DNA from: an uncultured bacterium
GTDB lineage: Bacteria; Oederibacteriota; PGYV01; CAWJRG01
Reading direction: 5' to 3'
Length of the DNA: 18,801 nucleotides
NCBI GenBank assembly: GCA_963845185.1
Contig: CAWJRG010000007.1
Coordinates: forward strand, 1 to 18,801
The notes beneath the pieces are model-generated. The model made no database searches. It had not been told where the DNA came from and worked only from the letters and a program-made list of their open reading frames with translations. This document shows positions 1-18,801 of the stretch, in pieces; position 1 is the stretch's first letter, and every line of letters starts with the position of its first letter. A program made the translations under genes and the position numbers.

Positions 1-582
1 GGTGAGATGGGGAAGATACCGGAGGGGTGGAAAGCCGGGAAACTTAATGACCTCGCGGAAATCATTATGGGACAGTCGCCGGCAGGAGAATCGATGAATG
101 AAAATGGTGAAGGTTTGCCTTTTTATCAAGGAAATAGAGATTTTGGATTTCGACTTCCCACAAACAGAGTATTTAGCACGGAGGAAACAAGAATCGCAGA
201 AAAAGGAGATATTCTTGTAAGTGTACGAGCACCAGTTGGTAGTTTAAATGTGTCAAAAGAAAAATGTATACTTGGAAGAGGAGTAGGCGCAATTAGGAGT
301 GATTATAAAAGTTATATTTTTTATTTACTTAAAACGGGTGGTATTGATTGGTCATCCTATGAAGCTAATGGAACAGTTTTTGGTTCAATCAACAAACAAG
401 AACTGACGGAAAGCAAAATTTTGGTTCCCGGTAAGAATATTTTAAAGGCTTTTAATGATATGGCTAGTAATATTGATGGATTAATTGAAATTAATGAAAT
501 TCAAAATCAAACTCTTTCCCAGCTCCGCGACTCGCTTTTGCCGCGCTTGATGTCGGGAAAAATCTCATATAATTTGAGGTGA
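1..582 (+). CDS. hsdS: Type I restriction-modification specificity subunit, C-terminal half (5'-truncated by the window edge)
   Basis: Frame is open from base 1 (GEMGKIPEGW, typical of the HsdS central conserved region). It continues through a TRD (IIMGQSP...KGDILVSVRAPVG...LGRGVGAIR) to the conserved C-terminal helix LSQLRDSLLPRLMSG. hsdR lies downstream. Confidence 0.93.
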   Translation, partial: GEMGKIPEGWKAGKLNDLAEIIMGQSPAGESMNENGEGLPFYQGNRDFGFRLPTNRVFSTEETRIAEKGDILVSVRAPVGSLNVSKEKCILGRGVGAIRSDYKSYIFYLLKTGGIDWSSYEANGTVFGSINKQELTESKILVPGKNILKAFNDMASNIDGLIEINEIQNQTLSQLRDSLLPRLMSGKISYNLR

Positions 583-586
583 TAAT

Positions 587-3001
587 GTGAATACCGATAA
601 ATATCGTGAACAATTATTGAATTTAATACAGGAAAATAAAAAAATAACTAATAGAAATGAAGCTACGACTAGATTACATTTAATAGATAAACTTTTACAA
701 GATTGTTTGGGGTGGAAATCTATAGATATAAGCGCAGAGGAAAACTATGATAAAACCTATGCTGATTATGTGTTGTCCGTTGATGGTAGAAGATTTGCAA
801 TTTTAGAAGCAAAACGGGAAGGAATATATTTTGAATTACCTTTAGATCATGATGATATTGAATATTCGATAGAATATTTATGTAAAGATAACAAACAAAT
901 TAAAGAAGCACTTAAGCAAGTTATACAATATTGTAATGAAAGAGGAACAGAAGTTGGTATTGTTAGTAATGGTTGGCAAATAATTGCACTTATTGCAACC
1001 AGAAGTGATGGAATTTCACCTCTTGAAGGAAAAGCAATCATATTCGACTCTATTGAAAAAATGGAAACAAATTTTATTGATTTTTATAATTTATTGTCAA
1101 AAGAAGGCATTCAAAAAAAACGTCTTTTACATCGATTAATTGATAGCGCAAGCGATACTCTGCCATTTAAATTATCTGAACAAATTGTAGGTTATCCGGG
1201 AAAACAAACAAGAAATGAATTACAAACTGAACTAAAAATTCTTGCCGAGTTAGTAATTGAAGATATTTCGACTAATAAAGAAATACAGACAAATTTTATA
1301 AGAGAATGTTATATACCGACTGGGACATTAACAAACTATGCATTATTAAGCAAAAAAATTTTAATGAGTCGGTATGAAATGCTATTTGATGAAGAGCAAA
1401 AACAAACTGCAAAATCTATTTCTTCAAAAAATGAAACTTTTGGTCGGGAAATAATCGCAGAAAGTATCAGCAAACGACCTATTTTGCTAATAGGAGATGT
1501 TGGTGTTGGCAAGACGATGTTTATTAAAAATTTTATTTTCATAGCGGCAGGTGAAGTTACAAGAAATGCAATAACTCTATATATTGATTTAGGACAACAA
1601 GCAAATATTTCGGCTGATATACGCGAAGCAATTCTGGAAATAATAGATGATCAATTATTAAAAGAACATAAAATTGATATCAAAGAAAGAAATTTTGTAA
1701 GAGGGACATACAGAGAAGAAATAGCTAGATTTAAACAAAGTTATTTCTCTGATTTAAAGAAAATTGATGATAAAGAATTAGATAAACGAGAAATTAATTT
1801 TATCGATAGTCTTGTTAGAAATAAAGAAAAACATATCAAAACAAGCTTAGAACATATTTCCAGAAAAGAAAAAAAACAAATATTACTTTTTTTAGATAAT
1901 GCAGACCAACGGGAAGAAAGTACACAGCAAACTGTTTTTCTTATGGCGCAAGAATTTGCAAGTAGTTGGCCACTTGCAGTTTTTGTTTCTATTAGGCCTG
2001 AAACATATTATAGTTCAAAAAAACGAGGAGCGCTCAAAGCATATCATACAAAATCGTTTACAATATTACCCCCTGATATATATGATGTAATAAAGAAAAG
2101 ACTTGAATTTGCACTTAAAATTACGAAAGGAGAAATGCCTCTAAATTATCCCGCTGGTTTAAAACTTGAAACAAAAAATCTAGAAAACTATATAAATATA
2201 TTATTATATTCATTTGATCGTGATAAACAACTAATCGAATTTATTGTGAATATTTGTTCTGGAGATTTAAGATTCGCTTTAGATTTAATTAACATTTTTT
2301 TGGGTAGTGGTCATGTAAATGTTTCGAAGATTTTAAAAATATATGAACAACAAGGTTTTTATCAAGTCCCAATTCATGAATTTTTACGTGCAATAATTTT
2401 TGGTGATAATCTATATTATGATCCAAATACTTCTCCGGTACAAAATCTTATCGATATAAAAAGTTCTTCGAAGAATGAGCATTTTCTATTGCTTATATTA
2501 CTTGATTTTATTTATAGGTCAAAAAAGACCCCGGGTACAGAAGGGTATATTTCATCGAGTGAAATTTTCAGTTATTTACAAAATTGTGGTTATCGAGAAA
2601 AACAGGTTTCAGATGCAGTGCTATTAGCTATCAAATATGGATTAATTCAAGGCAAAATCAAAGAAACAAATATAATTTCAATTCCAGAGACTTTGTGTAT
2701 AACAACTTCAGGAGCTTACCATTTTTTAAAATTAATTAAATTATTTATATATTTAGACGCTATTATAGTTGATACACCCATCCTTGATGATCAATTAAGG
2801 GCTTCATTGCAATCTAGTATTATAAATCATGATATTTTTAATAGACTTGAAAATTGTAGAAAGATAATAAGCTATTTAGATTCCTGTTGGAATGAAATCA
2901 ATGAGAATAAAATTGCGTTTAGGTGGAAAGAATATTCTTCAGTAATTTTAGAAGATATAAGATCTATTGAAGAAAGAGCAAGAAGAAAGCATGATATATA
3001 G
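587..3001 (+). CDS. Putative anti-phage nuclease-ATPase: HsdR_N-like PD-(D/E)xK nuclease + P-loop (AAA+/STAND-like) ATPase + probable C-terminal winged helix
   Basis: 804-aa ORF, GTG start, GAGGT SD overlapping the hsdS stop. The N-terminus NEATTR..LGW..YADYVL..ILEAKR..QVIQY..VSNG resembles HsdR N-terminal nuclease domains. Walker A is GDVGVGKT (1493-1516), Walker B is ILLFLDNADQ, followed by VFVSIR and SGDLRFAL motifs. Strongly AT-rich relative to most of hsdR. Confidence 0.75.
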   Translation: MNTDKYREQLLNLIQENKKITNRNEATTRLHLIDKLLQDCLGWKSIDISAEENYDKTYADYVLSVDGRRFAILEAKREGIYFELPLDHDDIEYSIEYLCKDNKQIKEALKQVIQYCNERGTEVGIVSNGWQIIALIATRSDGISPLEGKAIIFDSIEKMETNFIDFYNLLSKEGIQKKRLLHRLIDSASDTLPFKLSEQIVGYPGKQTRNELQTELKILAELVIEDISTNKEIQTNFIRECYIPTGTLTNYALLSKKILMSRYEMLFDEEQKQTAKSISSKNETFGREIIAESISKRPILLIGDVGVGKTMFIKNFIFIAAGEVTRNAITLYIDLGQQANISADIREAILEIIDDQLLKEHKIDIKERNFVRGTYREEIARFKQSYFSDLKKIDDKELDKREINFIDSLVRNKEKHIKTSLEHISRKEKKQILLFLDNADQREESTQQTVFLMAQEFASSWPLAVFVSIRPETYYSSKKRGALKAYHTKSFTILPPDIYDVIKKRLEFALKITKGEMPLNYPAGLKLETKNLENYINILLYSFDRDKQLIEFIVNICSGDLRFALDLINIFLGSGHVNVSKILKIYEQQGFYQVPIHEFLRAIIFGDNLYYDPNTSPVQNLIDIKSSSKNEHFLLLILLDFIYRSKKTPGTEGYISSSEIFSYLQNCGYREKQVSDAVLLAIKYGLIQGKIKETNIISIPETLCITTSGAYHFLKLIKLFIYLDAIIVDTPILDDQLRASLQSSIINHDIFNRLENCRKIISYLDSCWNEINENKIAFRWKEYSSVILEDIRSIEERARRKHDI

Positions 3002-3118: not shown

Positions 3119-6100
3119 ATGATTGAAGACCAGATTGAACAAACTGCTTTAGAGATGCTTGGGAAAATTGGGTTTGAAACTTTATTTGGACCTTCTATTG
3201 CCTTTGACGGCGAAACGCCGGAACGTGAGGATTATGCGCAGGTAATACTTAAAGGTCGGTTAGAGAAAGCTATAAAAGCCTTAAACAAAAGCCTGCCTGA
3301 TAGCTGCGTTCAGGAAGTCATTAAAAAAATTCAGTCCTTCTCAAGCCCTGACCTTATTGTCAACAACGAGCAATTCCACAAATACCTTTTTGACGGGGTG
3401 GGAGTGGAATATAAGAAAAAAGACGGGGAAATAAAACACGACATAGCCCGGATAATAGACTTTGACAATGTAGAAAACAATGATTTCCTCGCTGTAAACC
3501 AGTTCAAAATAATAGAAAACCGCGAGAACAGGAGGCCGGACATAGTCATATTCATAAACGGCCTGCCTATCGGCATCATAGAGCTTAAAAATCCTGATAA
3601 TCCAAACGCGGATATACAGGACGCTTTCCACCAGTTGCAGACCTATAAACAATGCATACCATCCATATTCCAGTACAACGAAATCCTCATCATTTCCGAC
3701 GGCAATGAGGCGCGGGCAGGCACGATAACATCTGACTGGGAGCGGTTTATGCCGTGGAAGACCATAGACGGCGAGAAGATTATCGAAAAAGAGCCGCAAA
3801 TGAGAGTGCTTATAGAGGGCATGCTGAATAAAAAAGTGCTGCTTGACCTCATACATCATTTTATCGTGTTTGAAAAAACCAAAAGCGAGACGCTAAAGAA
3901 ACTCGCGGCGTATCACCAATATTTTGCCGTAAACAAAGCAGTGGAAGCGACATTACGAGCTAAGGGTTATACGGCAAAACCCTCATCCTCGTTCCTTCTC
4001 CCAGAGGGAGAAGGAAGTATGCCCTCATCCCTAAATCACCAATACCAATTGGAAAGGGGAAAAGAAGAGGAGAGAGCTGACGGAAGTATACCCTCAACCC
4101 CGGCCCTTCTCCCAGAGAGAGAAGGGTGGCTTGTGGCTGAGGACAATTATCGAGGCGGGTTTTACTTTTCAGGGCTTATAAAAGAAGCGAGGGAACTCAG
4201 GAAAAAACAAACTAAGGCTGAAGAATTTCTATGGGAAATACTAAGAAACAAGAAATTTATGGGATTGAAATTCCGGCGTCAGCACCAGATAGGCAAATAC
4301 ATAGCGGATTTTTATTGTGATGAAAAAAAGCTTATTATTGAACTTGACGGCGGGGTACATGGAACTGAAAAACAAAAGAAACATGATAAAACGAGAGACA
4401 AGTATTTAACTACGCTTGGAAACAAAGTAATCCGGTTTTCGAATCATGCCGTTTTTGATAATACAGAAGGGGTATTGAATTCTATAGTTGCATACGTAAA
4501 TCCCTCACCCCTTCACCCCTCTCCCATTGGGAGAGGGGCAGGGGGTGAGGGTAACGTAGATCACCGTATAGGCGTGATTTGGCATACTCAAGGTTCAGGG
4601 AAATCATTATCAATGGTTTTCTATACAGGCAAGATAGTCAGCATAATGGATAACCCTACAATAGTTATGCTCACCGACCGCAATGACCTCGACGACCAGC
4701 TATTCGGCACATTCGGCAACTGCAAGGAAACTCTACGGCAGACGCCTGTGCAGGCTGATGACAGGCAGGATTTGCAGGACAAGCTGAAAGTAGCCTCGGG
4801 CGGCATCATATTCACCACAATACAAAAGTTCTTTCCTGAGAACAAGGGCGAAAAATACCCCATGCTTTCAGAGAGGTCAAACATCATAGTCATAGCCGAC
4901 GAGGCGCACAGGAGCCAGTATGATTTCATAGACGGGTTTGCCCGGCACATGCGCGACGCGCTGCCGAACGCTTCTTTCATGGGGTTCACAGGCACGCCCA
5001 TAGAGAAAAAAGACAAGAACACAAAGGCTGTGTTCGGCGACTACATAGACATATACGACATAGAGCAGGCAGTGCATGACGGCGCGACAGTAAAAATATA
5101 TTACGAGAGCAGGATAGCCAGGATAAAACTAAAGGAAAGCGAAAAGCCGAAGATTGACCCGCAGTTTGAGGAAGTCACTGAAGGCGAGGAAACCGAGTTT
5201 AAGGAAAAATTAAAATCAAAATGGGCAAGGGTAGAGGCGCTGGTGGGAGCTGGCGAGAGGGTAAAGCAGATAACGGCTGACTTTATAAGCCATGTGGAAA
5301 AGCGGTTCGCGGCTTTTGACGGCAAGGCAATGTTTGTGTGCATGAGCAGGAGGATATGCGTGGACGTGTACAACGAGATAGCGCGCCTGAGGCCGGACTG
5401 GTGCGATGACGGCGACGATAAAGGCATGGTAAAAGTAATCATGACCGGCTCCGCTACAGACCCGGCTGACTGGCAAAAGCATGTGAGGACAAAAGAAAGA
5501 AGGCGGGAGCTCGCGAACAGGATGAAGGACCCTGCTGACCCGATAAAAATAGCCATAGTAAGGGATATGTGGCTCACGGGATTTGACGCGCCGTGCCTGT
5601 CCACCATGTACATAGACAAGCCAATGCAGGGGCACGGGCTCATGCAGGCAATAGCGAGGGTAAACAGGGTGTTTAAGGATAAAAAAGGCGGCATGATAGT
5701 GGACTATATAGGCATCGCGGACAGCCTGAAAAACGCGCTGGCTGACTATACCGAGGGCGATAAAAAGAACATAAAGCTCGATACGCAGGAAGCTGTGTAT
5801 GCTTTTGTAAAAGAGTTTGAGGTAACACGGGATATGTTTCACGGGTTCGACTATAATAAGCGGCTTGCCGGCGCGTCCATGAACGACAGGCTGAAGGCGC
5901 AGATACAAGGAGCGGATTTTATAGCAGGGACAGACAAGAAGGACGATTTCCGCGGGCATGTGGTGCGGCTGAACCAGGCATACGCGCTCGTGCCTACGTG
6001 CGACGAGGCGATAAAAGCGACGCCCGACATAGCTTATTTCCAGCAGGTAAAGACGCGCCTGGACAAGCTAAGGGAAGCGACAAAAAAAGACAGGAACGAG

Positions 6101-6751
6101 ATGGATACCGCGATAAAACAAATAGTGTCCGGGGCAGTGGCGTCGGACGAGGTCATAGACGTATTCGGCGCGGTGGGGCTGAAGAAGCCGGACATATCCA
6201 TATTTTCCGAACAGTTCCTCGCCGAGATACGGGGCATGGAGTACAGGAGCCTGGCCGCGGAGGTGCTCCGCAAGCTTTTAAGCGACGAGATAAAAAAATA
6301 TGAAAAGACAAACCTTGTAAAGGCAAGGTCGTTCCGGGAAATGCTCGAGGCTGCCGTCATAAAACTGCAAAAAAAGGCGATAGAAACAGCCGAGGTAATA
6401 GAGGAGCTCATAAAGCTTGCCAGGGAAATGCAAAAGGAGCAGGCAAGGGGCGGGACACTCGGGCTGGATGAAAAAGAGACCGCCTTTTACGACGCTGTGA
6501 CAAGCAATGAGTCAGCGGTGCGGGAGATGAAGGACGATACCCTGAAGCAGATAGCCCGCGAGCTGGTAAAGACGGTGAAAGAAAACGCCAAGGTGGACTG
6601 GAACATAAGGGATAATGTTCGGGCGCAGATGAGGGTGTCTGTCAGGAGGCTCCTGCGCAAGTATGACTACCCGCCGGACGCGGCAGAGCTGGCAGTGGAG
6701 ATAGTGCTGGAGCAGGCCGCGCTCATGGGCGAGGGGATGGCGGGGGCGTGA
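3119..6751 (+). CDS. hsdR: Type I restriction enzyme R subunit (nuclease + SF2 translocase) with an in-frame DUF559 endonuclease insertion
   Basis: Nuclease motifs [21 protein letters not shown] and QLQTY. Helicase motifs [30 protein letters not shown] and [11 protein letters not shown]3387-like C-terminus ([29 protein letters not shown]). Confidence 0.96.
3980..4016 (+). repeat. REP-like hairpin repeat unit 1
   Basis: CCCTCATCC leader, then a perfect 11-bp stem TTCCTTCTCCC (3992-4002) / AGA loop / GGGAGAAGGAA (4006-4016). Confidence 0.85.
4082..4126 (+). repeat. REP-like hairpin repeat unit (a partial unit also starts at 4013-4031)
   Basis: GGAAGTATACCCTCAACCC (4082-4100) repeats GGAAGTATGCCCTCATCCC (4013-4031). 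The stem CCCTTCTCCC (4104-4113) / AGA / GAGAGAAGGG (4117-4126) has one mismatch. Confidence 0.8.
4502..4551. repeat. REP-like double-stem hairpin at the right end of the DUF559 insertion
   Basis: Outer stem CCCTCACCCC (4502-4511) pairs with GGGGTGAGGG (4542-4551). Inner stem is CCCCTCTCCC (4516-4525) / ATT / GGGAGAGGGG (4529-4538). It reads as the repeat consensus on both strands and encodes [17 protein letters not shown]. Confidence 0.9.
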
Positions 6752-10852: not shown

Positions 10853-12874
10853 ATGAAAAGAGCTTTCAGCATTAATAAGCCTGTAAAGAGAATAATAATA
10901 TGCCTTGCAATCCTCATGGCCGCAGGCCTGGCCATAAATAATAATATTAACGCTGCGGAATTTACTGTTACCGGTGACGTATGGGCAGCAAATGGAACTT
11001 CAGGCAGTGCTACATCAGAAAATAGTTTGGCAAGCTTGACTACGTTCAGGGTTGGAGACAACCAGGCAGCTTATCAAATTGAGGGGGAAAATTCTAACTG
11101 CCCCAATAAAATCTACGCAACGAGCGGTTCGGCAGTTGCTTATTATTATACGGATGCCGGATCGCAATGGACGAACCTATCGGTTCAAGCGGGTCAGACA
11201 ATAATAGCGATTGTCCAGACATACAGCGGCCAGTTCAGCAATTGTGTGTGGAGTGGAAATCCTTATGTCGGAGCTGTAGAGGCAATAGTAAGCCCCAGTG
11301 ATATTATCGCAACCTTGACAACCATGCCGCCCATTCAATTGCAGCAAATCCCTTCGCCGGCTTTGCAGTCAGCAAGCTATTTTAATTTATCACTGACATG
11401 GACAGGGCTTTCGATTGACCCAAATAATTTAATCGCAGGATACACGGTTTACAGAAGCGCGTCATTAGCAGGCACATACAGCCCGATTTCGTACACGGCA
11501 AATCAGGTGAAGGGCGGGCCTGTGTCTTTTACGGATTCGGGAGTTTCACCCGGGAACACGTACTATTATAAAATCGGGGTTAATTACGTATGGGATGGCG
11601 GCAGTAATACCATAAATTATTATACAAGTTATGCGCTGTCGAATCCATTGTCTGCTTCGACATTAAACGAAGACTTAACTGATTTAAAATATTCTCTTAA
11701 ATACGCGCCAACTAATATAACGGTGACAACGGGTGAGATTGTTACTTTAATTTCCCAGGTGAGCAATTACGGTTCTGAAAATGTAAATAACATAACTCCC
11801 TCACAGCCAGTCATAGTAGGTTCCCCTTTAAATGCGCTTGTTTTGCAAAGCGGTCCACAGCCGGCTACAATGTCATTGGGCTCCGGCGGAGGTATTGGCT
11901 ATTTTACATGGACATATTTGGCAAACGCGGGCGGCTCAATAACTTTTACCGGTAACGCCACGGGGATTGGAACCAGTTCAACTTTATACATTTCAAATAA
12001 TAGTTCTTCAAATCCAATAGCCGTGTTCACACGCGCCACTCTTAGCGCGCAGACAAGCGCAATGCCAAGCTCGGCTTCATTAGGCCAGACTATAACCGTT
12101 CTCATGACAGTCACGAACTCTGGCCAGGCAAATGCCGTCAACACATCAGGTAATATAACTGTAGTTGGAGTAACGGGCACGAATCCTTTAACTGCAGTGT
12201 CCCAGCTTTCTGCACCTCCGTCGACTACTATTTCAGGAGGAAACGGGGTAAATACATTTACATGGACTTATTCAGCTACAGGGGCAGGTACGGTTTATTT
12301 CAGCTGTTTTGCCTCGGGTACTGACCAGTACGCATTAAATGCAGTAACATCACTTCCTTCACCGAGCGCGAATATTATTATACAGATACCTGCAAGCCTG
12401 GCATCGACAATATATGTGCCGGCTACAACGAGCCAGGGGCAGGTATTTACAGTAATAATGAGCGTTACCAATTCTGGCCAGGCAGCGGCAAGCAATGTAA
12501 TACCGAATTTAACTGTTGTGCCGGCTACAAGCTTAACCCCGGTCAGCACGCCGGTGGCAAGTACAATAAACGGCAGTACATTACAGAATTTTACCTGGAC
12601 TTTCTCTGCATCAGGCCTTGGCAGTGTGAATTTCAGCGGGTTTGCTTCTGGCACAGACGCGAATTCGGGGTTTTCGATACATTCAAGCTCGACCAACACA
12701 TCCACAATAATCCAGTCGGGCAGCCACACTGGCAGCAGCGGCTTATGTAATGCCCGGGCAGGTATCAGTTGGCCAGCTTATAACAGTGATAATGAGGGTA
12801 ACAAACACTGGAGGAGCACTTGCGCAAAATGTTGCGCCGTTGCCGAGCTGGCCGGGTGTTTCAGTGCCAAATGA
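10853..12874 (+). CDS. Giant secreted repeat protein, segment 1 (signal peptide, FN3-like domain, first three repeats); true frame shifts at ~12718-12720
   Basis: GGAGG SD. Signal peptide MKRAFSINKPVKRIIICLAILMAAGLAINNNINA. FN3-like stretch LTWT..IAGYTVYRS..FTDSGVSPGNTYYYKI. The tail after IIQS is out-of-frame sequence. Confidence 0.8.
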   Translation: MKRAFSINKPVKRIIICLAILMAAGLAINNNINAAEFTVTGDVWAANGTSGSATSENSLASLTTFRVGDNQAAYQIEGENSNCPNKIYATSGSAVAYYYTDAGSQWTNLSVQAGQTIIAIVQTYSGQFSNCVWSGNPYVGAVEAIVSPSDIIATLTTMPPIQLQQIPSPALQSASYFNLSLTWTGLSIDPNNLIAGYTVYRSASLAGTYSPISYTANQVKGGPVSFTDSGVSPGNTYYYKIGVNYVWDGGSNTINYYTSYALSNPLSASTLNEDLTDLKYSLKYAPTNITVTTGEIVTLISQVSNYGSENVNNITPSQPVIVGSPLNALVLQSGPQPATMSLGSGGGIGYFTWTYLANAGGSITFTGNATGIGTSSTLYISNNSSSNPIAVFTRATLSAQTSAMPSSASLGQTITVLMTVTNSGQANAVNTSGNITVVGVTGTNPLTAVSQLSAPPSTTISGGNGVNTFTWTYSATGAGTVYFSCFASGTDQYALNAVTSLPSPSANIIIQIPASLASTIYVPATTSQGQVFTVIMSVTNSGQAAASNVIPNLTVVPATSLTPVSTPVASTINGSTLQNFTWTFSASGLGSVNFSGFASGTDANSGFSIHSSSTNTSTIIQSGSHTGSSGLCNARAGISWPAYNSDNEGNKHWRSTCAKCCAVAELAGCFSAK

Positions 12875-15800
12875 TGCCCAGGGATACGGCAGCCCTGTGC
12901 CTCTGAACCCGGTCAATATACCGGGAGGGGGCGTGCAGAATTATACGTGGACTTTCCAGGCAACTGCCACGGGAAGCGTCACTTTTACAATGAGCGCTTC
13001 CGGAACAGACGCGAACTCAAATTCAGCTATTACCTCAAATGTCGCAACAACATCGCCTCCTGTAAATATAGTATCGGCTACGTACTTGATTGCATCCATT
13101 TCAGATTCGCAGGCAGTTATTTCAACGGGCAATGTGCTGACAGTATGGCTCACGGTTACAAATACAGGACAGGCTGCGGCAAATAACGCGGCGCCGAACC
13201 CTGCTGTAATCACGGGAGCAGCCGGGTATACTCCGATAACAACTCCGGTTGCTTCAACCATACCCGGCGGCGGTTCAGTGACTTTCACATGGACATATTC
13301 AATGACAGGAGCAGGCTTATTTAATTTCCAGACATACGCGAAAGGCACGGATGCGAACTCCGGGGTTATTGTTAATTCTTCCCCGAGCAATAATATTATA
13401 GCCACGGTGCAGCAGGCAGCGGCACTTGCTTCTTCCATCAGCTTAAGCCCTGTTTTTGCAGGAGTAGGCTGGCAGGTAACCGTATATATGACAGTTACAA
13501 ACACGGGAGGCGCTGCAGCAAATAACGTCTCACCACAGCTTACGCCGGTATTATTAGGAGGAGGGAATGTGACGCTTACAACGCCGCCGTCTCCTTTTAC
13601 CGTGAGCATCGGGGCAGGGTTGTCGAATGTGTTTACATGGATATATTCGACAAATTCCACAGGCACGATTAATTTCTCGGGATATGCGTCAGGACAGGAC
13701 ATCAACAGCAACAATAATATAGCATCACCGTTCAATTATGCTTTATTATATATCCAGACGCCGGCAGCGCTTTCATCTGCAATATCCATAATCCCAGCTA
13801 CTTTATCTTCGGGGCAATTGTTTACAGTCATTATGACAGTTACAAACACAGGGCTCGCTGCTGCCAATGTCGTAACTCCGACAACTCTGACGAAGTACGG
13901 AAGCGGAGGTACATATCTCAATAGCGGGCCGCAGCCTTTAAGCACAAGCATACCTGGCGGTGCGACAGCATATTTCACGTGGACTTATATGGCCACAGGC
14001 CTGGGGTCAGTGGCTTTCTCCGGAGGCGCCCATGGCTGGGACAATTTGACCGGAGCCAATATAAATTCAATATGGACCATTTCCAACATGAGCATGATAG
14101 TGGCAGGCGCACAACTGGCATCGAGCATTACAGTCGCGCCGGCTTCGGTAAATTTAAACAACACAGTAACGGTTATAATGACCGTGTCAAACGGCGGAAC
14201 TGCAAGCTGCGTTAATGTCACGCCGGTTTTGATAAACGAAGGCTGGTCAGGCACCGGCGGGGTAGCTCTATTGTCAGGGCCGTCGCCTGCGTCCCAAGCA
14301 GTGCCGGGGCTGGGTATGTCGTATTTTACATGGACATATCAGAGCGTGGGAGTGGGCACGGTTATTTTCTCTGCCGAGGCGCAGGGAAATGACCAGAATA
14401 CAGGGAACCAGATAACTTCAAACTTTGCAAGTTCCAATACCCTTGCCATACAGACAAGGGCAATACTCACAGTAGCGGCTTCGGTGTTCCCGACAATAGT
14501 GGACACCGGCCAGAAGATTACTTTGATAATGACTGTCACCAACTCCGGACAGGGAAGCGCAAACAGTACAGTGGGTGTAGGCCCGGGTATGCAGGGTTCA
14601 GGGACTGTTTTGCTTTTCGGTTCGCCGCCGCCAGCGGTTACAATAACAGCCGGCTCAAGCGCGTATTTTACATGGATTTATACAGCTGAAACGCAGGGCA
14701 ATATAACTTTCACAATGAGCGCGCGGGGCATAGACAACAACTCGCAAACCGTGGTTACATCAAATGCAGACACGACAACCGCTGTTAATATCCAGAACGC
14801 TCCGAATTTAACCTGCAATATAACGGCAAACCCGCTGACAGTGGACCTGACATCCCAGCTTATCACGGTTGTTGTCAATATAAATAATTCAGGCGGGGCA
14901 ATGGTCAATAATGTTTTGCCGAATATAATTGTTATTGGCGGCAGCCCAACACCGGTATCGACACCGCAACCGGCAAACATTCCGGGGCAAAACAGCCAGT
15001 CATTTACTTATACATATATGCCCAGCGCTGCCGGGACACTGGTTTTTTCAGGCAACGCGTCAGGCACAGACGCAAACAATGGATCCACTGTTAATTCAAC
15101 CTATAATAATTCTTCAACCGTTACTGTCCAGACAACGGCGGCTTTAAGCGCGGCAATAACAGGCATACCTTCAATAATCGCATCAGGCCAGACTTTGACG
15201 CTTTACATGACTGTGACAAATGCAGGACAGGAAACAGCAAATAACACAATTCCGTTGCCTGTCGGCGTAAATTCCATATTCGGCGGCGCCTCGGCTACAA
15301 AACTCACAGGCCCGTTGCCTGCAAGTTATACGATACCGGGCAATTCCTCAGCGACTTTTACATGGACTTATCAAATGACAGGCGTCGGGACCGTCCAGTT
15401 CACAGGCAGCGCGCAGTGGGTTGACGCTGATTCAAGCGTTAACGCATCATCGCTTTCGGCAAGTTCCAATTTTATCAGCGTAATGACTCCTTCGCCGATA
15501 CTTGCCTCATCCATGTCGATCTCGAACAATGTCCTGTCAGTCAGTGAACAGATAACGGTAATAATGACAGTCACAAACAGTGGGGTATCGTCAGGCTGCA
15601 CGCACCCAAGCGCCATGAATATAATAGGAGGGGCAGAATCCCTGATCAGCGGGCCTTTACCGGCCTATGTAACAATAACCGCGCTTGGCGGGGTAGCGGA
15701 TTTCACATGGACTTATTCGGCGGCAAATGCAGGAGTCATACAATTCAGCGCGAGCGCCTATGCATATGAAGGAAACGGCTCCACGACAACCGCGGTTTCG

Positions 15801-16028
15801 CAGAACCTGACCATACAGACAGTTCCGGCCCTTTTAATATCGTTTACTGCTTTGCCTGTGTCTGTTGATGTAGGACAGGCGTTTACGGTAATAATGACGG
15901 TTTCAAATACGGGGCAGGCAACCGCAACCGGCATTGTGCCGGCACAGTACGGCAGTGACTGGCTTTTAAACCTGGCACCGGGACCGCATCACTGGTTTCA
16001 GGCCCATTGCCCGGTTCACAGGCAATAG
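12750..16028 (+). CDS. Giant secreted repeat protein, segment 2 (nine full repeats; the in-frame repeat sequence actually runs ~12720-15971)
   Basis: The repeat motif GQxxTVxMTVTNxG...FTWxY...GxxxFxxxAxGxDxN recurs every ~115 aa. The frame continues segment 1 if one G is removed from 12718-12720. Confidence 0.8.
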   Translation: MPGQVSVGQLITVIMRVTNTGGALAQNVAPLPSWPGVSVPNDAQGYGSPVPLNPVNIPGGGVQNYTWTFQATATGSVTFTMSASGTDANSNSAITSNVATTSPPVNIVSATYLIASISDSQAVISTGNVLTVWLTVTNTGQAAANNAAPNPAVITGAAGYTPITTPVASTIPGGGSVTFTWTYSMTGAGLFNFQTYAKGTDANSGVIVNSSPSNNIIATVQQAAALASSISLSPVFAGVGWQVTVYMTVTNTGGAAANNVSPQLTPVLLGGGNVTLTTPPSPFTVSIGAGLSNVFTWIYSTNSTGTINFSGYASGQDINSNNNIASPFNYALLYIQTPAALSSAISIIPATLSSGQLFTVIMTVTNTGLAAANVVTPTTLTKYGSGGTYLNSGPQPLSTSIPGGATAYFTWTYMATGLGSVAFSGGAHGWDNLTGANINSIWTISNMSMIVAGAQLASSITVAPASVNLNNTVTVIMTVSNGGTASCVNVTPVLINEGWSGTGGVALLSGPSPASQAVPGLGMSYFTWTYQSVGVGTVIFSAEAQGNDQNTGNQITSNFASSNTLAIQTRAILTVAASVFPTIVDTGQKITLIMTVTNSGQGSANSTVGVGPGMQGSGTVLLFGSPPPAVTITAGSSAYFTWIYTAETQGNITFTMSARGIDNNSQTVVTSNADTTTAVNIQNAPNLTCNITANPLTVDLTSQLITVVVNINNSGGAMVNNVLPNIIVIGGSPTPVSTPQPANIPGQNSQSFTYTYMPSAAGTLVFSGNASGTDANNGSTVNSTYNNSSTVTVQTTAALSAAITGIPSIIASGQTLTLYMTVTNAGQETANNTIPLPVGVNSIFGGASATKLTGPLPASYTIPGNSSATFTWTYQMTGVGTVQFTGSAQWVDADSSVNASSLSASSNFISVMTPSPILASSMSISNNVLSVSEQITVIMTVTNSGVSSGCTHPSAMNIIGGAESLISGPLPAYVTITALGGVADFTWTYSAANAGVIQFSASAYAYEGNGSTTTAVSQNLTIQTVPALLISFTALPVSVDVGQAFTVIMTVSNTGQATATGIVPAQYGSDWLLNLAPGPHHWFQAHCPVHRQ

Positions 16029-18801
16029 CAGGCAATTCAATGGGAAATTTCACATGGATTTATACGGCTACGGGGACAGGGAACATATCTTTCCAGGATA
16101 GCGTGACCGGATACGACATGAATACAGGCATTGCATATAATTCAATCCCGGCAAATACAAGCGCAGTTGCCATACAGTCGGGAGTAAACCTGGCTGCGCA
16201 GTTTAATGCCCTGCCAGCAGCGCTTGACTTAAACCAGACATTTACCGTGACCATGACAATTTCAAACACCGGCCAGGCCTCGGCATCAGGAGTGGCGCCT
16301 GTCACTTCAAACCTGCTGCCTATTATAGGCAGCGGCAGCGTGCTGCCGCTGACAGGCCCGCAGCCGGCGTCAACCCCGCTTGCAGGAGGCGCGTCAGCGG
16401 TATTTACATGGACATTCCAGGCAGTTGGCAACGGTACAATGCAGTTTTCTGCTCATGCCCAGGGCACTGAAATAAATACCGGGGCAACAAAAAATTCAGG
16501 CATAATAACAAGCCCGGTTATTACAATACAAAACCCGGCAACGCTTGTGTCAAGCATGCAGGCAGCGCCCAGCCAGGTAAGCGAAGGAAAAGTTATAACA
16601 GTAATAATGACGGTTTCAAACACAGGCGGGTCCACTGCTGCCAGCGTCGCGCCTCTGGCAGTTAATGTTTACGGCAATGTTGCATCAGTGGCTCTGGCCA
16701 CAGGGCCGCTGCCGGCTACGGCTTCAATATCGGGTCAAAGCCTGGCAACGTTTACTTGGACTTATAATGCGGTTGCGCCGGGCACAGTAACTTTCTCTGA
16801 CAATGCCACGGGCATTGACAGCGACAACTCGAATGTAATTACGAGCGCAATTACAGGCTCAAGTAGCGTGCAGGTATTGCAGGCTGCCGTGCTTAACCTT
16901 ACTGCGTTCACGGCTGCGCCCGCAACGGTAAGCGTAGGCCAGAATATAACCGTGACAATGACAGTGATTAATAATGGAGACGGCCCTGCCAACAGCGTGT
17001 TCCCGATGCCTATGCAATACCCGGGTATTACAGCAGGTTTGTCATTGACCTCATCGCCTTCCGCGGCTTTCAATTTGGCTGCAGGGATCAGCCATTCTTT
17101 CACCTGGATTTATAATGCGACAGGACAGGGCACATTGACTTTTGCCGGGCAGGCCACGGGAATTGACGCCAGTTCATTAAATATTATTTATTCGCAGATA
17201 GACACAAGCGCATTGATAAGCGTCCAGACGCCTGCCGGACTGAGTGCTTCATTCGTTTCATTGCCGGCAATAGTTTCAACAGGCCAGGCAGTCACTGTGG
17301 TAATGAATGTAACAAACACAGGCCAGGCATCCTGTAATAATGTAATTCCTTCGGCTCCAGGGCAGAGTGGCTCAGGCACATTCAGCGTGTCAGCAACGCC
17401 TGTCATCCAGACAATAGCGGGCAATACGTCTGCTCAATTTACATGGATCTATACAGCTGCTACTGCCGGCAATTTGTCGCTCACGTCATTGGCGCAGGGC
17501 ACAGACGCTGACAGCGGGAGCGCGGTTAATTCAAACGTAGCTTCCACAAATACGGTTACTATACAGAATAAAGCGGCATTGGCAGCGGAAATATGGGGAA
17601 GTCCTTTTGTTTCCAATACAGGGACTATTTATACATTGTACATGACAGTCACGAATACGGGACAGTCAACTGCAAACCTGACAAGCGCGGCTGTAAGCTG
17701 GCAAAATATATTAGGGTCAGCTTCTATTAATATATTAAGCTGGCCTGCGCCGGGAGCAATTACGATTACAGGCGGAAGCGCGCAGGTTTACACATGGACT
17801 TATAATGCGTCAGGCGCAGGCACAATAGCTTTCACCGGGTTTGCAATGGCAACGGACGCGGTCAGCATGCTTCCGGTCACTTCCACTGCAATAGTAAATC
17901 CAGTGCAGGAAATAGTCAAGGCGCCTGCGGCGCAGCTCAGCCTGCCGATATTGACTGCCATACCAGGCCAGGCAAGCATTGGACAAATTATAACCGTGGT
18001 AATGGGCGTAACAAATATAGGCATATCAGACGCTGTTGGAACCACTGCTTCTACAAGCATAGGATCAGGCAACGTTGTTTATCTTACTGGGCCTGTTCCC
18101 ACTGCAACTACAATCCCGGCGAACGGCGGCTATGCCACGTTCACGTGGACTTATTCGGCAAACGGAGCAGGCAACGCGACATTGATAGGCAGCGCTTCAA
18201 CAACAGGCTCTTTAAGCGGCCAGGCAAGCAGCAATACGGTGTTAATACAGACAGATCCCAGCCTGACGATTAATTTCACTCCGTTTACAACCAGCACTAT
18301 TTCAACAGGACAGGGAATAACCGTAATAATGAACATCCAGAATTCGGGACAGGCAACGGCAAACAATGTCCTGCCGCAGTTAATACCCGAAGGTGATTCT
18401 TCAAGTATAGGCTTAATATCAGCGCTGCCGTCAGCAGTCAATATACCTGGTAATTTAGGGAATGCTAATTTTACATGGATTTATAACACAACTGCCAACG
18501 GCGTGGTTAATTTTTATGGACAGGCAGCAGGCACTGACGCAAACTCAGGCGCTGTTGTTTCGCCAACTCCTGTTATCACCGGCAATGTTACCAATAGAAA
18601 GCCCGGTCAGCCTCGCGAGCCGAATATCATTGCCCGCGACAGTCAGCGAGGGCGAATCGTACGTTGTTTATATGACAATTACAAACACCGGCCAGGCAAA
18701 CTCAAACGCTGTCACGCCAGGAATGCTTATGCTGAGCACAGGCCCGGGTTCGGGCACAAGCATAAAGATTTTAGGGCCATCGCCTGCAAATGCGAATATA
18801 T
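15959..18801 (+). CDS. Giant secreted repeat protein, segment 3 (absent from the ORF track because it has no stop in the window); another +1 shift at ~18591-18594; runs off the window
   Basis: Manual translation of the frame starting at 15959 is open to the window end and gives eight more (F/Y)TWx(Y/F) repeats. After 18594 the repeat (IESPVSLASRISLPATVSEGESYVVYMTITNTGQA) is in the next frame. Confidence 0.8.
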   Translation, partial: MAFKPGTGTASLVSGPLPGSQAIAGNSMGNFTWIYTATGTGNISFQDSVTGYDMNTGIAYNSIPANTSAVAIQSGVNLAAQFNALPAALDLNQTFTVTMTISNTGQASASGVAPVTSNLLPIIGSGSVLPLTGPQPASTPLAGGASAVFTWTFQAVGNGTMQFSAHAQGTEINTGATKNSGIITSPVITIQNPATLVSSMQAAPSQVSEGKVITVIMTVSNTGGSTAASVAPLAVNVYGNVASVALATGPLPATASISGQSLATFTWTYNAVAPGTVTFSDNATGIDSDNSNVITSAITGSSSVQVLQAAVLNLTAFTAAPATVSVGQNITVTMTVINNGDGPANSVFPMPMQYPGITAGLSLTSSPSAAFNLAAGISHSFTWIYNATGQGTLTFAGQATGIDASSLNIIYSQIDTSALISVQTPAGLSASFVSLPAIVSTGQAVTVVMNVTNTGQASCNNVIPSAPGQSGSGTFSVSATPVIQTIAGNTSAQFTWIYTAATAGNLSLTSLAQGTDADSGSAVNSNVASTNTVTIQNKAALAAEIWGSPFVSNTGTIYTLYMTVTNTGQSTANLTSAAVSWQNILGSASINILSWPAPGAITITGGSAQVYTWTYNASGAGTIAFTGFAMATDAVSMLPVTSTAIVNPVQEIVKAPAAQLSLPILTAIPGQASIGQIITVVMGVTNIGISDAVGTTASTSIGSGNVVYLTGPVPTATTIPANGGYATFTWTYSANGAGNATLIGSASTTGSLSGQASSNTVLIQTDPSLTINFTPFTTSTISTGQGITVIMNIQNSGQATANNVLPQLIPEGDSSSIGLISALPSAVNIPGNLGNANFTWIYNTTANGVVNFYGQAAGTDANSGAVVSPTPVITGNVTNRKPGQPREPNIIARDSQRGRIVRCLYDNYKHRPGKLKRCHARNAYAEHRPGFGHKHKDFRAIACKCEY

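Follow-up and report, generated by a model that had tools for sequence, protein, structure and literature searches.

The window studied here is one entire 18.8-kb contig (18,801 nucleotides, CAWJRG010000007.1 of assembly GCA_963845185.1) of the 3.5-Mb draft genome of an uncultured bacterium of the Oederibacteriota. It contains a full-length hsdR gene (3119-6751, plus strand), which encodes the R subunit of a type I restriction enzyme with 1210 amino acids (aa) in a frame that is open throughout and which is the host of an insert with a nuclease domain. The HsdR protein has the Pfam domains HSDR_N (residues 3-208), DUF559 (residues 355-459, E 3.5e-36), SWI2_SNF2 (residues 481-693) and T1RH-like_C (residues 880-1203). 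The match to SWI2_SNF2 begins only at profile position 17, which places the first part of that domain beyond the DUF559 segment, and the DUF559 part is therefore an insert. Comparison of DNA and protein with the empty allele L006 and the empty HsdR relatives P0003-P0006 delimits the whole inserted segment to 3968-4558 (plus strand), which are 591 nt or 197 codons, in frame and without a stop or a start of its own. It is located seven codons before helicase motif I, between the Gly and Asp codons of the Lys-Gly-Asp of the empty site. An earlier note on this DNA had seen about 199 extra codons (3962-4558) with a DUF559 nuclease in front of the HsdR Walker A motif; the insert and its nuclease stood, but length and bounds had to be changed to the values given above.

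The element proper reaches from ACCCTCA (3979) to TGAGGGT (4552), two ends that are inverted repeats of each other, with fillers of 11 and 6 nt outside. Its left end starts with a unit in reverse orientation of the triplex motif described below (3979-4016), in which a third block, ACCCTCATCC, is followed by the hairpin CCTTCTCCC-AGA-GGGAGAAGG, and whose outer end ACCCTCA represents the left terminal inverted repeat. Next to it lies a degenerate middle unit (4017-4089) with a partial block CCCTCATCCC at 4022-4031 and then a purine-rich stretch, which is read as a Pro/Gly/Glu-rich linker, and a second left unit (4090-4126), also in reverse orientation, forms a hairpin with one mismatch. Behind the nuclease core follows the right end, a nested 51-nt palindrome (4502-4552) with a unit that is readable on both strands, CCCTCACCC..CCCTCTCCC-ATT-GGGAGAGGG..GGGTGAGGG, and with TGAGGGT as its outer end and right terminal inverted repeat. 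The hairpin core CCYTCTCCC-n3-GGGAGARGG is present at 3994, 4105 (one mismatch) and 4517, and matches appeared in 0 of 200 shuffles. Three direct repeat copies were found (3979-4014, 4090-4125 and 4502-4537), and a partial copy became visible in the repeat search as a pairing of 4010-4031 with 4079-4100. Moreover, 4089-4128 and 4514-4553 are in an inverted relation over 40 nt (83%), and the right unit has nested arms at 4502-4518/4535-4551 and 4516-4526/4528-4538. The picture given in the earlier note, with GC-rich hairpin repeats bracketing the nuclease, a partial repeat at 4022-4031, a right unit fitting the consensus on both strands and repeats translated without a stop, was recovered in each of these points, the last one by the open frame of 1210 codons. 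When folded as single-stranded DNA, the three units gave -10.9 (z -4.7), -7.5 (z -2.0) and, for the right unit, -24.1 kcal/mol (z -6.8). Taken singly, the repeat units have a stop in only one of the six frames, a TGA within the GGGTGAGGG block, and this near-absence of stops partly accounts for the large number of copies that can be read through. An Rfam scan of 3800-4700 revealed no family above its gathering score, only hairpin look-alikes with 18-26 bits against gathering scores of 40-95. The G+C content of the DUF559 core is about 0.35, compared to 0.44-0.55 in the remainder of the gene.

The left junction filler (3968-3978, plus strand), 11 nt long, separates the first repeat from the host codon GGT. 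Positions 3970-3979 are an inverted copy of the host stretch TTTTGCCGTA (3922-3931, plus strand), the exact reverse complement of which forms the filler (10 nt, 100% complementary, 38 nt apart). This hints at a possible scar of repair synthesis of the snap-back type; no host-derived inverted filler was seen in the printed sequences of the G014 and G022 junctions. According to the empty-allele comparison the right junction filler is AACGTA (4553-4558, plus strand; Asn-Val), which precedes the host residues Asp-His-Arg, and a Gly-Glu-Gly-Asn-Ala/Val right junction recurs in several distant filled alleles. The orthologue in G014 has the same right junction as the window and a shorter left repeat array. 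Since the right junction is common to both, the two alleles stem from one insertion. The right end of the cassette in G022 (locus L008, G022:C203) consists of four tandem 39-nt units of the triplex motif, which are read as a repeated peptide of 13 residues (PLS.WERTGEDN.). Together with the different array lengths in the window and G014 this shows that the arrays expand and contract. As a target-site duplication AGGGT was considered, which is present at 3963-3967 and 4548-4552, but the second copy belongs to the repeat itself, and no convincing duplication was found. Furthermore, HsdR has no Pfam match to intein (Hint), HNH or LAGLIDADG families and its frame is continuous, and Y1_Tnp/RAYT (PF01797) was not found in the whole genome (99.4% complete), with a control search that was positive in 6 of 14 reference genomes. 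Hence, neither intein motifs nor a convincing target duplication nor a transposase of this kind was found here, in line with the earlier note.

BoxC/PIT/TM triplex repeats have been known since the 1990s. The layout listed for TM(ECO) is CCCTCTCCC, a loop, GGGAGAGGG, a 4-nt spacer and GGGTGAGGG, with 34-36 nt in total (Holder et al., 2015, PMC4666352, Table 1). By-eye comparison with this table showed that window positions 4517-4552 fit the three-block layout, and that the left units contain the same blocks in reverse orientation with mismatches. Judged by these blocks, the end repeats of the cassette are the published BoxC/PIT/TM(ECO) intrastrand-triplex motif, of which the hairpin folding was computed here. 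The motif is described in more than 260 genomes, from many phyla and at unstable, rearrangement-prone loci, and occurs singly or as inverted pairs in dispersed multiple copies; the text of that paper handles it as non-coding structural DNA, names no protein in connection with it and contains the word “endonuclease” 0 times (PMC4666352). In Escherichia coli K-12 the gene ycjD (1351407-1351760, minus strand) codes for a DUF559 protein, and its stop codon lies inside a degenerate BoxC unit. In the surrounding region (NC_000913.3, 1351040-1351830, L003) a partial duplicate of the 3' end of ycjD comes next after the gene itself, and behind it lies a full BoxC unit; TM(ECO) number 9 of the published table (1351204-1351239) is located about 170 nt downstream of ycjD. 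The ycjD locus is whole in 3346 of 5426 E. coli genomes, in the others the homology breaks off about 40 nt ahead of the BoxC unit, and one O157:H7 record has an operon for an RND (resistance-nodulation-division) efflux system after fabI at this locus. Thus, the repeats of the window resemble those described by Holder et al. in block layout, in their occurrence as single units and inverted pairs, in their dispersed multi-copy nature and in their presence in many phyla, but differ in that the motif here makes up the ends of a cassette with a nuclease, is read as protein within genes and shows a linkage to DUF559, also beside ycjD. Among the papers listed for DUF559, YcjD, BoxC/triplex motifs and palindromic in-frame elements, none described a link between DUF559 and the repeats or such cassettes. 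The cassette family is apparently undescribed, and it is widespread.

The nuclease core itself comprises 118 aa (4145-4498, plus strand) and belongs to the Vsr-like PD-(D/E)XK nucleases of the DUF559 family (PF04480). The Pfam match in HsdR reaches 123.8 bits against a cut-off of 20.6 and covers 103 of 109 profile positions (128.7 bits in a six-frame search of the genome), and PDB entry 3hrl was matched by sequence with E 1.6e-19. In an AlphaFold2 model of a 199-aa segment, roughly residues 70-180 form a compact domain with a pLDDT (predicted local distance difference test) above 90, and the repeat-encoded flanks are predicted to be unstructured (pLDDT 47-64). Foldseek searches with the modelled core gave 3hrl with a TM (template modelling) score of 0.88 and 40% identity, the homing endonuclease I-Bth0305I (PDB 3r3p) with 0.73-0.75 (E 4e-4), and Vsr (1cw0/1vsr) with 0.5. 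All ten invariant columns of an alignment of 68 DUF559 sequences are kept in the cassette, namely T84, E87, F104, R106, D116, D129, G130, H133, D142 and N161 in cassette numbering, and the near-invariant E127 is kept too. The conserved acidic and His residues of the family are among them, and some of these are putatively catalytic. Compared with G014, nonsynonymous divergence (pN) of the core is 0.108 and synonymous divergence (pS) is 0.82 and thus saturated, with a core identity of about 84%. The host parts of hsdR show pN values of 0.086-0.091 and pS values of 0.62-0.73, a sign of purifying selection, and the repeat-encoded linkers have a pN of about 0.35 and a pS of about 0.5. By these values, hsdR has stayed under selection with the insert in place, the nuclease is intact and as constrained as the surrounding restriction enzyme, and the linkers are free as peptides. 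With such strong purifying selection on a nuclease within hsdR, a domesticated role is conceivable, alongside a purely selfish one or in its place.

In total 7999 HsdR relatives were scored, and among the best 120 of them PF04480 is present in 15 and missing in 105. P0002, with 86% identity to the window HsdR in the host part, is filled at the same position, and in P0003-P0006, with 77-82% host-part identity, the site is empty (..TL.A.KGD). Among 40 relatives, the G014 orthologue is filled and the G010 orthologue is empty, and both genomes are of the same order as the one studied here. An alignment of 25 HsdR sequences, numbered after the residues of P0003, revealed cassettes in frame after residues 100, 226, 283 and 379, the flanks being always repeat-encoded peptides (PSP..GRG, LP.GEG); HsdRs P0069, P0010 and P0027 have repeat-only inserts without the nuclease. 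Then, 200 HsdRs of at least 950 aa were examined, drawn from the host-likeness list and from a set picked by cassette likeness. Ninety-six of them carry the cassette and 104 do not; by P0003 position, 72 cassettes lie near 283, 13 near 222, five near 101, five near 381 and one at 254. P0001 and P0011 share 54% identity in the host and 80% in the core. Among 4560 pairs, a core identity more than 25 points above the host identity was found in 1344 and the reverse in two; much of the 96-cassette set was chosen by cassette likeness, so that the high core identity is partly built in. Maximum-likelihood trees were calculated with a subset chosen by host likeness, which avoids this bias. In the host tree P0011 groups with P0118 (100/100), and P0001 and P0002 are nested in a clade of empty alleles (100/100). 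In the cassette tree P0011 groups with P0001/P0002 (97/100), and P0118 (site 283) with P0057 (site 101; 98/96). This strongly supported conflict between both trees means that cassettes moved between alleles and between sites. Host flanks near the site have a likeness to the window of 0.726 in filled alleles (0.527 overall) and 0.695 in empty ones (0.595 overall), but the region is conserved anyway, so that the values are ambiguous with respect to co-conversion. Plasmids (51 records) and phages (5 records) gave only relatives below 60% identity, and no vehicle was identified among them. In public sequencing data one DNA run contained 0.09 of the sampled words and no RNA run was listed; the contigs of this DNA run comprise parts of the host gene and, separately, the repeat unit 4516-4552 alone with other flanks, with no joint across the insert, and they are uninformative on excision or expression.

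Nuclease and repeat are linked far beyond hsdR. A pyrimidine/purine hairpin was found not more than 260 nt from the core in 16 of 22 DUF559 loci from many phyla, with 28 hairpins per 11,440 nt near the core versus 12 per 91,202 nt in the remainder of these loci, and the stem sequence is almost the same across phyla. At the protein level, 95 of 150 representatives have a repeat-derived peptide within 70 residues of the core, versus 1 of 150 with shuffled flanks. Furthermore, 15 of 20 genomes with a strong DUF559 match contain at least five hairpins (TCTCCC-n3-5-GGGAGA) versus 3 of 21 genomes without, with an odds ratio of 18 and a Fisher p of 1.3e-4 that is overstated since related genomes are not independent.

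A search with the 118-aa core alone in 1.84 billion representative proteins gave 26,448 relatives at E ≤1e-3 and 12,681 at E ≤1e-10, of which the best 150 were taken further. Among these, 71 have at most 200 aa and thus stand-alone size, and 63 are longer than 300 aa. The 68 proteins longer than 250 aa were analyzed with Pfam and their hosts tallied by us. HsdS is the most frequent host (25/68), followed by HsdM/N6_Mtase proteins (8), type IIG enzymes of the MmeI/Eco57I kind (8), HsdR (4) and type ISP enzymes (2), so that restriction-modification proteins account for 47 of the 68 long representatives and for 47 of the 56 with a recognisable host domain. Eight further hosts are housekeeping or other proteins, which are 5-enolpyruvylshikimate-3-phosphate (EPSP) synthase with NUDIX (two), UvrC, a class-I aminoacyl-tRNA synthetase (aaRS), CobT, and radical-SAM/TRAM, GNAT and DEAD/AAA proteins; one is a DUF1156 protein that also has a GIY-YIG domain, and in 12 only DUF559 was found, three of them being tandem copies. 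Truncated DUF559 cores are present in P0282, P0335 and P0362. By this tally, the clade nearest to the cassette of the window sits overwhelmingly in restriction-modification genes. In a sample of 41 genomes based on taxonomy, 27 strong matches (E <1e-20) were obtained, three in frames of more than 400 aa, all of which are hsdR, and the other 24 in frames of 111-290 aa. Twelve of the 22 GTDB loci mentioned above have DUF559 in frames of more than 400 aa, namely eight HsdR, two HsdM and two class-I aaRS, with the limits that L014 is the same record as G014 and that the DUF559 part of the leucyl-tRNA synthetase locus L035 appears solely by tblastn at 2e-9. These 12 loci belong to Calditrichaceae, Thermodesulfobacteriota, Latescibacterota, Verrucomicrobiota, Elusimicrobia, Rickettsiales, candidate-phyla-radiation groups, Bacteroidota and Firmicutes. 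GIY-YIG domains occur in the same kinds of hosts together with DUF559, as in P0126 (HsdM) and P0381 (the DUF1156 protein), and may represent a second family of nuclease cassettes that behaves alike.

Within the genome of the window, the strict core with its 3-nt loop is confined to this locus and operon. The conclusion from this strict search, that the genome has no free repeat copies, was overturned by a looser scan, which gave 117 pyrimidine/purine hairpins versus 0 in the shuffled genome, many of them paired at distances of 100-180 nt. They include an intergenic family similar to MITEs (miniature transposable elements of the inverted-repeat type) with an estimated 25-30 copies, 21 pairs of which were inspected. 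The copies are 125-185 nt long, have 5-nt loops and end in forward and reverse units of the triplex motif; examples from the hairpin scan are C10:370649-370742, C5:565344-565479 and C9:497991-498175, and some of them are part of a larger repeated unit that has identical flanks. Another DUF559 gene, the second one in the genome, stands alone (C10:215383-215772, minus strand; locus L037, 2383-2772) between a surface-protein gene and a glycosyltransferase gene. It codes for 129 aa with a repeat-encoded C-terminus, is 55% identical to the core of the window and is bounded by ends of the kind found in the MITE-like family. Because of these shared ends, the MITE-like copies look like cargo-less forms of the C10 element. 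Inside real long genes only two sets of hairpins were found, the one in hsdR and one cargo-less unit in hsdM at the start of C1 (C1:4279-2636, minus strand; loci L036/L038). The hsdM gene has about 17 extra codons after YHAWK, an in-frame unit of the triplex motif without the nuclease. At this site the G010 orthologue (81% identical) is empty, and that of G022 (60% identical) carries, in the same loop, another repeat insert, which is longer.

It is probable, though well short of certain, that the insert in hsdR is the resident copy of a mobile, frame-tolerant cassette that consists of a Vsr-like (DUF559) nuclease gene between inverted triplex-hairpin repeats of the BoxC/TM type. It probably entered hsdR in the common ancestor of the G000 (the genome of the window) and G014 alleles, in a linker at the surface that connects the nuclease domain with helicase motif I, and it is translated as one more folded domain, carried on two floppy linkers that the repeats encode. 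We count as established the insertion relative to empty alleles, the repeated in-frame arrival in numerous genes and positions, the lateral movement relative to the hosts, the linkage of DUF559 and repeat across many phyla, the existence of cargo-less derivatives and the intact, selected nuclease. The proposal in the earlier note of a frame-preserving mobile element with a nuclease and REP-like ends is supported in this way by recurrent sites, tree conflict and repeat linkage, with room left for a domesticated role. The comparisons that it had proposed agree with this: close homologues differ, with P0003-P0006 and G010 empty and P0002/G014 alone filled, the phylogenies of DUF559 and host are incongruent with strong support, DUF559 is accompanied by the repeat elsewhere (the C10 gene, 16/22 loci, 95/150 proteins versus 1/150 shuffled, and ycjD in E. 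coli), and free repeat copies can be counted in the genome (117 hairpins by the looser scan).

How such a cassette would move can be drawn up only tentatively, and we give the particular version that follows somewhat less than an even chance of being right. DUF559 would recognise a hairpin, a cruciform or a mismatched fold-back of its own end repeats and nick there. The break would be repaired by copying, leading to a gene-conversion-like spread among related alleles; at new sites, this would involve microhomology or snap-back synthesis. Insertions would survive only if they lie in tolerant loops and remain open and in frame. Hopping within the operon, together with the high horizontal mobility of restriction-modification operons, could then cause the pile-up in hsdR, hsdM and hsdS.

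Several points weigh against the reading as a mobile cassette. We know of no strand-transfer activity of a PD-(D/E)XK nickase, so that integration must lean on host repair, a conjectural step. Direct movement was not seen: neither a pair of near-identical genomes that differ in the cassette nor excision reads were found, and no target duplication was clear. The recurrence at one loop could reflect survival in the sole permissive loops rather than targeting, and the bias towards restriction-modification genes could reflect function instead of hopping, as tethering to any of the three subunits leads to the same enzyme complex. Besides, the cassette-likeness set used for the HsdRs and the set from the core search were both picked for resemblance to this cassette, so that the host spectrum and the core identities are partly built in. 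G021 and G029 have 15-16 hairpins without DUF559, and G008 and G024 have DUF559 without this hairpin pattern. Finally, the cassette has resided in the hsdR lineage long enough to saturate synonymous sites and the pN of its nuclease (0.108) is still near that of the host (0.09), whereas a fixed, purely selfish nuclease would be expected to decay; the kept constraint points to a host-level function or to continuing transfer.

Two serious rivals have to be compared with the mobile cassette, both of which we regard as unlikely. According to one of them, the insert is a domesticated accessory domain, a second nuclease or nickase module that is kept since it alters or improves restriction, with the repeats as mere flexible linkers and with shuffling by ordinary recombination. 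The purifying selection on the core, comparable to that on the host over a saturated synonymous distance, would be in line with this idea, as would the complete set of family-invariant DUF559 residues, the strong constraint on hsdR with its insert, and the 47 restriction-modification proteins among 56 recognisable hosts, the R, M and S subunits all being part of one complex. However, the linkers are conserved as DNA palindromes and not as peptides, with frames that differ among copies (PSP..GRG, LP.GEG, LS..ER) and a high linker pN, and these repeats also border intergenic DUF559 genes that stand alone, as well as MITE-like copies between genes that lack the cargo. Insertion positions differ within one protein family, truncated cores and repeat-only inserts exist, cassettes are also found in aaRS, UvrC, CobT and EPSP synthase genes, and most HsdRs have no cassette (105/120 of the best listed and 104/200 of those examined). 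Domestication may also be the present state of a cassette that arrived mobile, and would then be partly compatible with the mobile cassette.

The other rival, which we consider if anything less probable still, sees the nuclease as a parasite of the repeat: the repeats would spread by replication slippage, by another enzyme or by host recombination, and DUF559 would be a homing-type endonuclease that targets the repeat and inserts between paired units, which would account for its constant flanking by them. A modelled fold near that of I-Bth0305I fits to this, a repeat that hardly differs between phyla would offer such an enzyme an ideal, universal target, G021 and G029 have many hairpins without DUF559, and MITE-like copies far outnumber nuclease genes in the genome of the window (about 25-30 versus 2). 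Yet the DUF559 frame usually runs into the repeat, which encodes the C-terminus and in E. coli the stop codon, so that both look like one unit; DUF559 and hairpin abundance co-occur, and no other candidate for a mobilising enzyme was found, with no Y1_Tnp in the nearly complete genome. The data are compatible with a parasite of the repeat and with the mobile cassette alike. In contrast, it is hardly conceivable that the structure is an artefact or a product of chance, i.e., an assembly chimera or low-complexity repeats in an anciently fused gene. The window is indeed an entire short contig of a draft genome, and public reads give no usable cover of the cassette, but in the G014 orthologue an identical junction is occupied by the same cassette, the cores being about 84% identical, which effectively refutes an artefact; dozens of independent assemblies show the same architecture, 1210 codons are open, and the repeat appeared in none of the 200 shuffles.

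With regard to known systems, repetitive extragenic palindromes (REPs) and the REPINs derived from them are scattered, GC-rich palindromes, often in inverted pairs, which flank genes of REP-associated tyrosine transposases (RAYTs; TnpA-REP, HUH Y1) and are species-specific. The genome of the window likewise has a nuclease gene (on C10) that is flanked by palindromes dispersed as cargo-less copies. However, the enzyme is a Vsr-like PD-(D/E)XK protein (PF04480) and not a HUH protein, no Y1_Tnp gene was found, the repeat is nearly the same across phyla, and copies lie in frame inside genes. Rickettsia palindromic elements (RPEs) are palindromes in frame in protein genes, which are translated as surface peptides, leave the host protein intact and carry no gene; to our knowledge, no enzyme is assigned to them. 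As with RPEs and in-frame MITEs, the palindromes described here are translated in intact host genes for which empty alleles exist (hsdR, and hsdM with its cargo-less unit and the empty G010 allele), but the full-length form carries a folded nuclease domain and is present in many phyla. Homing endonucleases and inteins share with the cassette the position of a nuclease in a conserved host gene beside a conserved motif and the lateral spread between alleles, and I-Bth0305I, a Vsr-like EDxHD homing endonuclease, was the second-best fold match of the modelled core. Here, however, no intron or intein splices the insert out, the domain stays in the mature protein, and the ends are hairpins. Single-site homing would agree with 72 of 96 HsdR cassettes at one loop and with the incongruent trees, yet the cassette also occupies at least four further sites and a large range of other host genes. 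The best fold match of the model, NGO0050 (3hrl), is a DUF559 protein from structural genomics with the same predicted fold. The modelled core also has the same fold as Vsr of E. coli, which is a stand-alone T:G mismatch nickase paired with Dcm, whereas no Dcm-like partner or role is evident for the inserted DUF559.

On a wider scale, DUF559 might be the missing enzyme behind the BoxC/PIT/TM repeats, and the cassettes might form a distinct class of prokaryotic mobile elements, with a Vsr-like nickase that works on the fold-back or triplex formed by its own ends, host repair for pasting and no transposase, which crosses phyla, leaves MITE-like or solo copies and colonises restriction-modification operons; we regard this as plausible, with chances approaching even without reaching it. 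If true, it would give a testable origin and an enzyme to repeats that are listed for hundreds of genomes, that of E. coli K-12 among them, but have no known cause, and a nuclease-only, hairpin-ended cassette would join the known ways of DNA movement. Moreover, it would mean that whole folded domains can be inserted into enzymes that go on working, which opens a way to new domain architectures. For annotation it would be a warning, as “HsdR/very-short-patch-repair endonuclease fusions” would not be designed fusions. The pile-up in restriction-modification genes also raises the question whether the cassettes modulate defence systems or merely ride on them.

Upstream of hsdR the window contains the C-terminal half of hsdS with one target-recognition domain (7-582, plus strand; Pfam Methylase_S), which is truncated by the start of the contig, and between hsdS and hsdR a gene for an 804-aa AAA_22 ATPase with a weak HSDR_N-like nuclease part (587-3001, plus strand; Pfam), which may be an accessory gene of the restriction system. 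The two halves of hsdS lie at the starts of two contigs, the N-terminal half at C1:2208-1477 and the C-terminal half in the window, and possibly a repeat or an inserted element interrupts hsdS and broke the assembly. The genes hsdM, split hsdS and hsdR are probably one operon across the contigs C1 and C7, the latter being the window, because the gene order in G014 and G010 supports this. A second hsdR gene of the genome (C9:535190-538243, plus strand) is about 50% identical to that of the window, has an empty insertion site and is interrupted by one TAA. Many HsdR homologues (P0041, P0045, P0048, P0087 and P0007) have a C-terminal extension of about 165 aa with Peptidase_S24 (LexA-like), a different add-on in a different place. 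Downstream, the window harbors three large consecutive genes (10853-18799, plus strand; 673, 1092 and >931 aa), two of them with weak CARDB/BatD-like matches, which are unrelated to the cassette.

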